DNA from: Eledone cirrhosa
Lineage: Eukaryota
Direction of reading: 5' to 3'
Assembly: GCA_964016885.1 (NCBI GenBank)
Contig: CAXHJY010001460.1
Span: 1-42,577 of the forward strand
DNA length: 42,577 nucleotides
The notes below the pieces were generated by a model. It worked only from the letters and a program-made list of their open reading frames with translations. It was not told where the DNA came from and did no database searches. The first letter of the stretch is position 1. Every line of letters starts with the position of its first letter. Made by a program: the position numbers and the translations under genes. Shown here piece after piece: positions 12,029 to 38,331 of this stretch.

Positions 12029-12370
12029 ATATTGTTATACTTGGGGAGGGTCATATTTGTGTAATATTGCCAGAATTAATAACAGAACACACTCACATAC
12101 AACACAACAGGAGGAAAATATAACACCACTGACGATGTTGCAGATGTGCAACGAAAGATTTATGATAAACTATATATATGTGTTTGTGTCTATATTGTAT
12201 CTGTATTATTTTTGACCGTCGGTCAGTCAATGGCAACAGTGAGGACCGAGTAATTTAGATTACCGATATAAAAGACAGCGAGAAGCGAAAACCAACCAAA
12301 CAGTGAGTGTGTTCTGTTATTAATTCTGGCAATATTACACAAATATGACCCTCCCCAAGTATAACAATAT
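12029..12370 (+). mobile_element. PLE-like end with 68-bp perfect inverted arms enclosing a hammerhead (family D)
   Basis: 12029-12096 is the reverse complement of 12303-12370. The terminal ATGACCCTCCCCAAGTATAACAAT recurs at about 37136 and 38471. Confidence 0.8.
12125..12166 (+). ncRNA. Minimal type I hammerhead ribozyme with an extra nucleotide after A9 (family D)
   Basis: acca CUGACGA u guugca gaug ugcaac GAAA gauu UA ugau. Confidence 0.72.
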
Positions 12371-13251
12371 TTGTTTCGACACACGATTTCATATAAAAAA
12401 CCTCGCAAAATTAATTCATCGCCGCTATATATATATATCGACGCACCTCAAAAACCGACAACGAAGTCTGACTGTTCACAAAACATGTTGTTTGTTACAA
12501 TGTCATGTCATTCGTAAAACATAGGATAGATGTTGTAACCTCATTGGAACTGGGAGGGAATTGTGAGTAGGTCACCCCGGGATTAGTGAGGGCCGGTAGA
12601 GCAACTTGTGGGCTTTAATCTAATGGAGGGTCATCTACCTCGCAGTGGCTCTTAATGTATATATACACATATATAAATATATATATGTACACACACATAT
12701 ATGTGTGTGTATATATATATATATAAAGACACACATACATATATATGTTTATATATATCACCGTGTGTGTGTGACTCTAAAGTGTGCTGGAGATTGCTAT
12801 GTAGAAAATAAAGTGACAAAAGAGAAAGAGGGAAAGAAAGAAAAAGTGACAGAGATATATATATAGAGAGAGAGTAAAATGGTAACCATTGAGTTTGTGT
12901 AATGTCTCGACTAATGGGAGATATCGACTGTTTGATATTGCAGACGAGAGTTCAGCTCACGTACTCCGCCTACTGACAACGGCGTCGTCTTTTTATATAC
13001 ATCGCTTTATACATACATACATATATATTTATATATATATATATATATATATATATACATATATATACATATGTATGCGTGTTTATCTGTGTATATATGT
13101 ATGTATATACATATATACAGTCTGTGTGTGTATATATATATATATATGCATATGGACGTACATACGTAAATATATATGTATACATATGTGTGTATATATG
13201 TGTATATATATATATATATGTGTATGTATGTGTGTGTGTGTGTGTGTATAC

Positions 13252-13315
13252 AAGAACAAAACTGTTTCACATTCAGGTTTTTATAAAAACCTGAATGTGA
13301 AACAGTTTTGTTCTT
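13252..13315. repeat. Perfect 64-bp palindrome
   Basis: AAGAACAAAACTGTTTCACATTCAGGTTTTTA|TAAAAACCTGAATGTGAAACAGTTTTGTTCTT. Confidence 0.95.
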
Positions 13316-13539
13316 CATATACACACTCTACTACAACATAGTATAGAGTGTATATATAACTCACACTGTAAATCATAAATCTACTATATATCACTATATA
13401 TATATATATATATATATATATATATATATTTTAAATATATATATATATATATTTTAAATATATATATATACACACACACACGTATATGTATATACATATA
13501 TATAAATCTATATAGAAATACATAATACGCATGTTTATA

Positions 13540-13782
13540 GATACACAGCTGTATACATATTAAACAGTCATATAATATATATATATATATATATATATAT
13601 ATATATATATATATATTATATGACTGTTTAATGTCTCTATAGAGATATAAACAGTCATATATATTTCCCCCGGTATAGAGATATATAACAGTCGTATAAA
13701 TACACACCTGTATACATATTAAATAGTCTTATATACATACACCTGTATAGAGAGATATAACAGTTGTATATATACACAGGTA
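13540..13782. repeat. Degenerate short tandem repeat (ACAGTCATATA / ACACCTGTATA / AGAGATATA blocks)
   Basis: These blocks recur several times each. Confidence 0.6.
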
Positions 13783-14057
13783 TGTCTTCTTTACACACCG
13801 GGACAAAGATATATAGGATCCCCTAAAAGGTGATAAGGGGTCATGATGTCGTAAGGAATCTATTATCAAATAGACGGTATGGCCACAGATGGAACGGCAG
13901 GTGTCATAAGTTGCTGGTCGTATGGGTTAATCTGTTGTTGACAAACAATAACATCTGGTGTGCAATCTTAGACTGATCGGTACAGATATATATATATGTA
14001 TATATATATATATATATATATATATATATATATATATGTATATATATATATATATAT

Positions 14058-14203
14058 ACAATGATATTAAATAAATGGAAACTATATTTATAAAACCATA
14101 TTTATTCTATTATATATATTTCAAGGGTACCAAAACTTTGGTACACTTTCATCAGATAAAATAGTTTGTTTTATAAAAATTCGAGTGCACTGAATCAGTT
14201 ATA
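14058..14203 (-). mobile_element. PLE-like end, family B
   Basis: Homologous to 23559-23690 and 24254-24395. Confidence 0.8.
14103..14163 (-). ncRNA. Type I hammerhead ribozyme (family B, copy 1)
   Basis: Minus strand reads uauuuuau CUGAUGA aag-u-guacca aaguuu ugguac-c-cuu GAAA uauaua UA auagaaua. Stem I has 8 bp with one G-U, and the core is intact. Confidence 0.85.
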
Positions 14204-36470: not shown

Positions 36471-37572
36471 TACGTACATACATGTATATACATATATGGT
36501 GGCTGCTAACTCGTTTTCGAGTACGGCCACTACTTTATATCCATGTAGGAGAACCCCTACCGATGCGCTGAACGAGTGTGACTTTTTAGTCCAGCCAGCG
36601 ACTTGAAAACTCTGTACAAACACTATACTTGTGACAATTATTGACACACATATATATATATATATATATATATATATACATATATAGCTATTGGAACAAT
36701 ACCACACACACGCACATATATATATATATATATATATATATATATATATATATATATATATATATATATATACACCTATATTCCTTGTTATAATCTCACC
36801 ATAAATTATAGTTTATTTGTTTTATATCAAAAGATGGGATCTGTGTACAGCTAACAGGTGTATTAAAAGTGTCAATTTCTTTTCTTTGTGAAATATATTG
36901 CTTTACTCCCCTCCACGTATTGAGTTCAGTTTCAGATTAGGTTTCGATCTTGTAAAACATAAAGCACCAAATGTTTGACAATATATGCACTATAATAGGT
37001 GTGTATGTATGTATATATGTATGTATATGTATATATGAATGTATATATATATAAATGTATATTTATATATATATGTACACATATATGTATGTATATATAT
37101 ATATATATATATATATATATATATATTACAACAATATGACCCTTCCCAAGTATAACAATAATCTGTTATTTAATATATATACATATATATACATATATAT
37201 GTATATATATGTATATATATATATACATATGTGTGTATCTACGTGTCTATATGTATATATATATATATATATATATATATATATATTCATACACATATAT
37301 GCATGTATGTGCATATGTAATGAATGAGTCAGTACATTCTACGCAAACAAGACAAACTAAAATGTACTCAATACAAAGTGGTGTCAGTTGTTTCTATCTA
37401 ATCGATACTAAGCCAACATACTCTAGGTTCCATTACGTATTGTACATATATACGAAAGAACATATTGTACATATATATATATATATGTGTGTGTGTGTGC
37501 GTGTATAGTGGTGAAACACTGGAAGGTAATATCCGTAGTGCTAAAGCACTAAACTCCATTGGACGCGTTATG

Positions 37573-37713
37573 TAGAACTGGTTACACAACAGTTAGTTCA
37601 CCATACCGAGAACAATTATTTCACCTTAGCGGATCCTCAGCTCGTAAACGAGCTGAAGATCCGCTAAGGTGAAACAACTGTATGGTGAACTAACTGTTAT
37701 GTAACTACTTCTA
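37573..37713. mobile_element. Fold-back PLE-like end (family E) with a hammerhead core in each arm
   Basis: Plus strand: cgag CUGAAGA ucc gcuaa ggu GAAA caacug UA. Minus strand: cgag CUGAGGA ucc gcuaa ggu GAAA uaauug UU cucg. Confidence 0.75.
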
Positions 37714-37740
37714 AATATATATAGTGATGTGAGAAAAACC

Positions 37741-37838
37741 GCAGAAGAACTGCGAAACCGGTAAAGGAACCAAATAAATATATATATTTTTTTAAATAAG
37801 ACTCCAGTTGCATTTTCGATTTCATCTTTTTTTCTTTA
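37741..37838 (+). mobile_element. Second copy of the 8075-8313 family (hammerhead 3' half plus tail)
   Basis: GCAGAAGAACTGC GAAA CCGG TA AAGGAACCAAATAAA...GACTCCAGTTGCATTTTCGATTTCATC. Confidence 0.85.
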
Positions 37839-38286
37839 TATATATATATATATATATATATATATATATATATATATATATATATATATATATATACATA
37901 TATATATATATATTACATATATTTATATATATTTATATTTATATATGTATATATATATTTATATTTATATATATATATGTATATATATATTTATATATGT
38001 ATATATATATATATATATATATATATATACATATATTTATATATATTTATATTTATATATGTATATATATATTTATATTTATATATATATTTATATATAT
38101 ATTTATATATATATATTTATATATATATATATATTTTATATATATATATTTATATATTTATATATATATATTTATATATTTATATATATATTTATATATT
38201 TATATATATATATATATATTTATATATATATATATATATATATTTATATATAAAGGAAAGGCACAGAAACAAAGAAAGGAATCCCC

Positions 38287-38331
38287 AGTCACTGAAGAGG
38301 TCACAGAGTGTGTGACGAAAGGACTATGATT
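38287..38331 (+). ncRNA. Minimal type I hammerhead ribozyme with an extra nucleotide after A9 (family D-like)
   Basis: aguca CUGAAGA g gucaca gagug ugugac GAAA ggac UA ugauu. The island ends (about 38471-38494) with the same terminus as 12344-12370. Confidence 0.75.

Follow-up and report, generated by a model that had tools for sequence, protein, structure and literature searches.

The window, meaning the whole stretch of 42,577 nt analysed here (Eledone cirrhosa, contig CAXHJY010001460.1), looks like animal DNA and consists largely of (TA)n tracts, between which lie short islands of repeats. Two diverged hammerhead-shaped motifs, copies A and B, lie 26 kb apart on its plus strand (Table 1). 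Copy A reads ACCA-CUGACGA-(U)-GUUGCA-gaug-UGCAAC-GAAA-GAUU-UA-UGAU and copy B reads AGUCA-CUGAAGA-(G)-GUCACA-gagug-UGUGAC-GAAA-GGAC-UA-UGAUU; both are of type I, with the core CUGANGA ... GAAA ... UH, a four-base insert, then UA and a short stem I. A first-pass annotation of this DNA had claimed two hammerheads with a one-base insertion at the same position, and this holds: each copy carries one extra base directly after A9, U12136 in copy A and G38299 in copy B. The positions given there, 12125 and 38287, do lead to the motifs, although they mark where stem I begins; the core starts at 12129 in copy A and at 38292 in copy B. Stem II has 6 bp in both copies, the first of them G10.1-C11.1, and the compensation already noticed within it is confirmed, since its third and fourth pairs differ between the copies on both strands (U-A to C-G and G-C to A-U). 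For copy B, leaving the extra G unpaired is favoured (-6.4 kcal/mol) over the shifted register (-2.6). Stem I of copy A is limited to two contiguous pairs followed by a C-A mismatch. Both copies have a 2-nt loop III (AU in A, GA in B), the pair 15.2-16.2 is G-C in copy B and G-U in copy A, and an A-rich flank lies 5' of stem I in both.

Table 1. Features of the element remnants in the window (positions are those of the window).
Feature	Position	Strand	Details
Head-to-head, inverted and 5'-truncated copy of the 3' end of the pseudo-LTR	12029-12096	-	Contains the shared 24-mer
Hammerhead, copy A	12125-12166	+	Stem I 12125-12128/12163-12166; core 12129-12135; extra U12136; stem II 12137-12152; GAAA 12153-12156; helix III 12156-12161; predicted cut after 12162
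Putative 5' untranslated part of the pseudo-LTR	12167-12344	+	Begins with a TATATATA run; family members vary and have many indels here
Likely start of the element's ORF	12345-12428	+	28 codons, no stop
Short fragment of the same pseudo-LTR end	37123-37160	+	Codons 1-8, no hammerhead; 92% identity over 38 nt
Whole copy B remnant	38255-38496	+	Between two (TA)n tracts; ends in the shared 24-mer; tail absent
Hammerhead, copy B	38287-38331	+	5-bp stem I; core 38292-38298; extra G38299; stem II 38300-38316; GAAA 38317-38320; helix III 38320-38325; predicted cut after 38326

The left arm of copy A, 68 nt in length and preceded by (TA)n, is 100% complementary to 12303-12370 and thus forms a perfect inverted repeat with it; a short TA run occupies 12426-12438. 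A 24-mer (ATGACCCTCCC...) occurs at 12031-12054 (minus strand), 12345-12368, 37136-37159 (1 mismatch) and 38471-38494, and in none of 100 shuffles. The first-pass annotation had taken this sequence for a terminus common to the two copies; it is indeed shared, but it is found four times instead of twice, most likely represents codons 1-8 of the ORF carried by the element, and is followed in copy A by a further ~55-60 nt. Copies A and B are identical at 25 of 26 nt at this ORF start, 179-216 nt downstream of the hammerhead; as the alignment between them holds over the hammerhead and the final stretch and is poor in the middle, they represent diverged subfamilies. Both hammerhead-bearing copies start (at 12097 and 38255) 32-37 nt upstream of the core, and many reads of one sequencing run (X22, below) continue in family sequence ~90 nt further upstream; the shared start may reflect a common stop of reverse transcription or chance. 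Within 37123-37180, the short ORF-start fragment directly adjoins sequence from the end of another repeat family, that of 5290-5985 (28 nt, 89%), which suggests a nested insertion within one TA tract.

A strict descriptor, composed after the motifs had been seen, matches twice in the window and in none of 1000 dinucleotide shuffles of its 49 non-simple-repeat islands (14,375 nt). When only the core, at least 3 bp of stem and GAAA are asked for, the mean is 0.029 matches per shuffle compared with the two observed; cores did arise in the shuffles (4.9 in each), so the null works. In Rfam (release 15), nothing in the window reaches the gathering threshold of a hammerhead model, and the surroundings of the two copies yield no hammerhead even at E=10, weak matches being dismissed as chance, and a descriptor lacking the insertion finds neither copy. 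That standard descriptors miss the variant, as had been claimed, is therefore correct for these two; it does not extend to the descriptor published in 2014 for Penelope-like element (PLE) hammerheads, which permits "a possible extra N10" (Cervera and de la Pena 2014, PMC4209133). When re-implemented, this descriptor also finds neither copy, because of the 2-nt loop III and not because of the extra base; copy A additionally needed stem I to be relaxed to 2 bp. The strict minimal form (min-HHR: no loop III, GAAANNUH) is matched by neither copy in a re-implementation, and on their sequence both motifs are filed under the small-helix-III type rather than under min-HHR.

Variation across the family was followed in four of the 24 sequencing runs listed (X1, X5, X6 and X22), aligned to 12097-12657 at 80% likeness. 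Matching pieces amount to 8,538 contigs in X1, 87 contigs in X5, 11 contigs in X6 and 396,231 reads in X22, which shows a family of very many related copies; X22 is a reduced-representation (RAD) library in which some copies are over-sampled, and summed contig depth was left out as a measure of copy number. Read ends at 12325 and 12416 in X22 were set aside as probable RAD restriction ends. Family depth is near zero beyond ~12438, at the same ~55-60 nt past the 24-mer as the end of copy A. Over 12124-12158, a segment comprising the core, the extra U and stem II, X22 depth is ~364,000, and no variant appears among the best 40 of 65 substitution rows and the best 12 of 18 indel rows; deletion of U12136 is likewise absent from those 12. 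A majority lacking the U is ruled out, as such a deletion would top every listed indel row, the largest of which counts 23,000 reads. Single pieces of X5 and X6 cross 12136 without substitution and keep the extra U, since their gap counts give the net extra length and nothing is omitted. The result on the insertion describes the copy A subfamily, B-type hammerheads having diverged too far to match at this likeness; the extra G of copy B is seen in one copy. Within this scope, the insertion, which the first-pass annotation had expected of the family consensus, is kept.

By comparison with the core, helix III and the cut site are less uniform. The commoner letters 12159A, 12160C and 12162U are found in 80, 80 and 87% of X22 plus-strand reads and in 40, 39 and 53% of X1 depth; with them, 15.2/16.2 becomes G-C, the pair also seen in copy B, in ~80% of X22 reads and ~39% of X1 depth. 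Loop III is mostly AA in family reads, and neither the commoner family letters nor copy B is palindromic, copy A itself carrying minority letters at helix III and at the cut site. These minority letters and the difference between the two extra bases (U and G) are what could be expected of decayed canonical hammerheads that each gained a base by accident, or of a chance match, but such an account is scarcely credible given the absence of a 12136 deletion among the best 12 of 18 indel rows at ~364,000-read depth and the 0 matches in 1000 shuffles; for the copy A subfamily it is already largely refuted.

The end shared by the remnants bears a coding signal. The frame from the ATG at 12345 stays open for 28 codons, of which codons 1-8 likely close the pseudo-LTR proper and the remaining ones constitute the tail. 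Among the variants listed, 11 of 15 fall at third codon positions (binomial P 0.002) and 11 of 15 are synonymous (the null averages 3.1, and none of 100,000 draws attains 11), compared with 0-6 synonymous in the other five frames for the same listed variants; these ratios could drop over all 65 substitution rows. No indel lies inside the frame among the best 12 of 18 indel rows. By hand reading, two X5 contigs keep H-I-K-N-L-A while all six consecutive third positions are changed, and one X5 contig, translated by hand, continues in frame beyond 12428 for 10 stop-free codons (G-I-S-L-C-Q-A-E-R-L), a sign that is weak if taken alone. The idea of a conserved AUG formed by A9-U-G10.1 was dropped: copy B reads AGG there, and the copy A frame stops after 26 codons (hand reading). 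Protein searches with the short N-terminus, of which 28 codons are present here, linked no reverse transcriptase or GIY-YIG ORF to the family; they returned no Pfam family, and the atlas matches were all below 0.9 and unnamed, some queries carrying 2-22 residues of flank beyond the element. With so short a query, such blanks are weak evidence. The ORF-start pattern gave 0 matches in viral contigs, metagenome contigs and prokaryote genomes, the hammerhead pattern 0 in viral contigs, and a protein-based metagenome scan 589 pattern matches, none of them confirmed; as these collections contain little animal DNA, their blanks say little. A shared end that is the start of an ORF would provide a handle for locating the autonomous parent.

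We infer a PLE origin from the motif, family, layout and coding signal described above. The two hammerhead-shaped motifs with an extra base very probably belong to 5'-truncated pseudo-LTR remnants of a high-copy PLE family, in which they would weakly cut long element transcripts, mostly as dimers. A pseudo-LTR that includes an ORF start and an optional tail, together with an inverted 5'-truncated copy and an AT-rich or microsatellite target, is the layout known for PLEs; the core, the extra base, G10.1-C11.1 and the long compensated helix II are those of PLE hammerheads. The family carries the hammerhead, a spacer and the ATG-opened frame in that order, and the window copies sit in (TA)n. Extrapolating from work on PLEs, reverse transcription would begin inside the first ORF codons at two sites (around codon 8 and around codon 28), and copying back through the hammerhead with an early stop would then generate both tailed and tailless copies as well as the inverted partial copy. 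In tandem parent copies, two hammerheads would mutually complete helix III and cut after H17, that is, after 12162 and 38326 in the copies described here, in a dimeric cleavage probably assisted by the element's protein; the two solo copies in the window would probably be inert relics. A promoter role for 12167-12344 is conceivable from the available text of Arkhipova et al. (2013, PMC3846280). Folding does not independently argue for activity, which is no surprise where loop III has 2 nt: helix III self-duplex energies are weak (0.0 and -1.7 kcal/mol), the dimeric hammerhead is not the lowest-energy form in two-copy folding, and monomer folds have z-scores of -0.8 and -1.2.

The first-pass annotation had proposed a new hammerhead variant independent of PLEs, paralleling the insertion of CChMVd, in a family that might be unannotated. 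No Rfam model finds the motifs, no PLE protein was linked to them in searches with the short N-terminus, and loop III is unlike most published examples (PMC4209133), all of which would suit that proposal; it is nevertheless very improbable, since the extra base is present in 54 of the 56 examples of a PLE-centred survey and the inverted copy, the tail, the (TA)n target and the ORF start all suit PLE ends. The novelty of the variant is thereby not upheld: a PLE group has already been published with exactly this extra base, so that, as far as its letters go, the variant is an ordinary, known form of which this family is a further example. A second alternative, that of a non-autonomous retrozyme (circular RNA made from tandem hammerhead monomers) or of a DNA element resembling MITEs, with inverted repeats at its ends, draws on the perfect 68-nt inverted repeats of copy A and on the derivation of animal retrozymes from PLE pseudo-LTRs reported in the available text of bioRxiv 10.64898/2026.07.22.740005. 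It is improbable as well: tandem monomers number 0 among the 76 tandem-repeat rows of the window, a unit-length back-joint is absent among the best 15 of 29 joints, copy B is devoid of an inverted arm, the family continues beyond the right arm, and its end is under protein-coding constraint.

Under the PLE reading, the contrast between an extra base that is near-fixed and helix I and III letters that drift raises the question as to whether selection maintains the base as a control point in a family of such abundance. Whether the base is U or G, together with the non-palindromic loop III, might set the cleavage rate or contact the element's protein, the whole acting as a protein-gated switch that keeps the template RNA uncut until after reverse transcription; this is a speculative proposal and a rather unlikely one. 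The natural U/G and loop III variants do bear on what role PLE hammerheads play, the family adds a probably unsurveyed host group, the cephalopods, and Rfam release 15 still misses such motifs.

Several other elements share the window. A third hammerhead-like motif, at 25799-25856 (+), is devoid of the extra base and combines CUGAAGA, a long stem II, GAAA, a palindromic UAUAUA insert and a 4-bp stem I (CUGC/GCAG); it probably belongs to another PLE family. The element at 5290-5985 has inverted ends with CAGAAGA-U-CCC-guuaa-GGG-U-GAAA on both strands (5930 +, 5439 -), in which A takes the place of U4 and U flanks stem II on both sides. Its 87-aa frame (5463-5726) has the pattern W-IL...C-LC...LN...S-C-H, which we take to resemble the GIY-YIG C-terminus of PLEs; Pfam and protein searches with this remnant gave no match. 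A repeat family with a hairpin-like inverted layout (3990-4090, 6740-6830 and 18590-18750) bears CUGAUGA-U-UUC...GAA-U-GAAAC, a hammerhead-like core whose stem II is again flanked by U on either side. Decayed hammerhead-like cores (CUGAAGA) are seen at ~37652, within an inverted repeat (37560-37700), and at 6976, with a 4-bp stem. A LINE-like reverse transcriptase ORF, presumably CR1/L2-like, is represented by two 3' fragments (15970-16470 and 20328-21027, both on the minus strand) for which Pfam gives no match; the repeat at ~20247-20310 and 7260-7326 presumably resembles an Octopus short repeat, and another short repeat occurs twice (11551-11744 and 35689-35872), each time immediately after a very long TA tract.

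The CChMVd (+) hammerhead with its extra A10 shares the insertion site; by comparison, the motif described here is genomic, of type I and has an unstable helix III, whereas CChMVd is the RNA of a plant viroid and folds stably as a monomer. An extra G is reportedly harmful in that hammerhead. According to a sentence citing De la Pena and Flores (2001), catalysis can be enhanced when the added base is A or U, and the PLE paper itself likens the extra base to that of CChMVd (PMC4209133). For the position of the extra base, the available text of PMC6155905, PMC3376415, PMC12531169 and PMC3088659 adds nothing; a literature search for hammerhead ribozyme and octopus gave no match on octopus ribozymes by title or abstract among the matches listed, and a paper on Octopus vulgaris repeats lists Penelope families, the words "hammerhead" and "ribozyme" being absent from its main text. 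Animal retrozymes, in the available text of bioRxiv 10.64898/2026.07.22.740005, carry a type I hammerhead, their derivation from PLE pseudo-LTRs is proposed, and the non-LTR ones are defined by tandem monomers, in contrast to the solo copies of the window.

Endonuclease-bearing PLEs share several features with the remnants: in the available portions of PMC3846280, PMC8557442 and PMC11167929, the pseudo-LTR ends within the first codons, the tail is optional, a partial copy lies head-to-head and the target is AT-rich or (TA)n. In a rotifer Penelope, which also has an inverted copy, the pseudo-LTR holds the first 12 ORF codons and the tail brings these to 22 (available text of Arkhipova et al. 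2013, PMC3846280), compared with 8 and 28 codons here. The same layout, a microsatellite bias and a tail at one end are described in the available text of Craig et al. (2021, PMC8557442), where tails measure 30-40 nt against ~55-60 nt here. In an Anolis PLE, reverse transcription starts at two sites inside the 5' region of the ORF, targets are AT-rich, cleavage is protein-assisted and insertion in vitro needs no cleavage; the ORF begins at stem II, unlike the spaced hammerhead and ATG of this family (available text of Frangieh et al. 2024, PMC11167929). The dimer model is reviewed in the available text of Weinberg et al. (2019, PMC6765202).

The extra base is the norm for animal PLE hammerheads, with the consensus CUGANGAH G...C GAAA (Cervera and de la Pena 2014, PMC4209133); by our own count of the Figure S3 rows, it is A in 30, U in 12, C in 11 and G in 1, and missing in 2, so that the extra G of copy B matches 1 of the 56 published examples. 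Molluscs are represented there by Lottia and Crassostrea, cephalopods being absent from the 56 rows. Published PLE hammerheads have a self-complementary loop III and 15.2/16.2 pair, by which dimers can form (PMC4209133). Differences from them include the non-palindromic loop III, which is GA in copy B and AA in most of the family, and the 5' flank, A-rich here and U-rich in the published consensus (PMC4209133). A schistosome example shows no cleavage as a monomer and low cleavage as a dimer (PMC4209133). The Drosophila virilis Penelope type, whose helix III bears an insertion of 2 nt, whose helix I is 2 bp long and which escaped the authors' minimal descriptor (PMC4209133), resembles the motifs of the window in being of type I, in the extra base, in G10.1-C11.1, in the 6-bp helix II and in the 2-nt helix III insertion; copy A shares with it the 2-bp helix I as well, and helix II of copy A, GUUGC-agaugu-GCAAC, is similar to the Drosophila GGUUGC-cgaagu-GCAACC.
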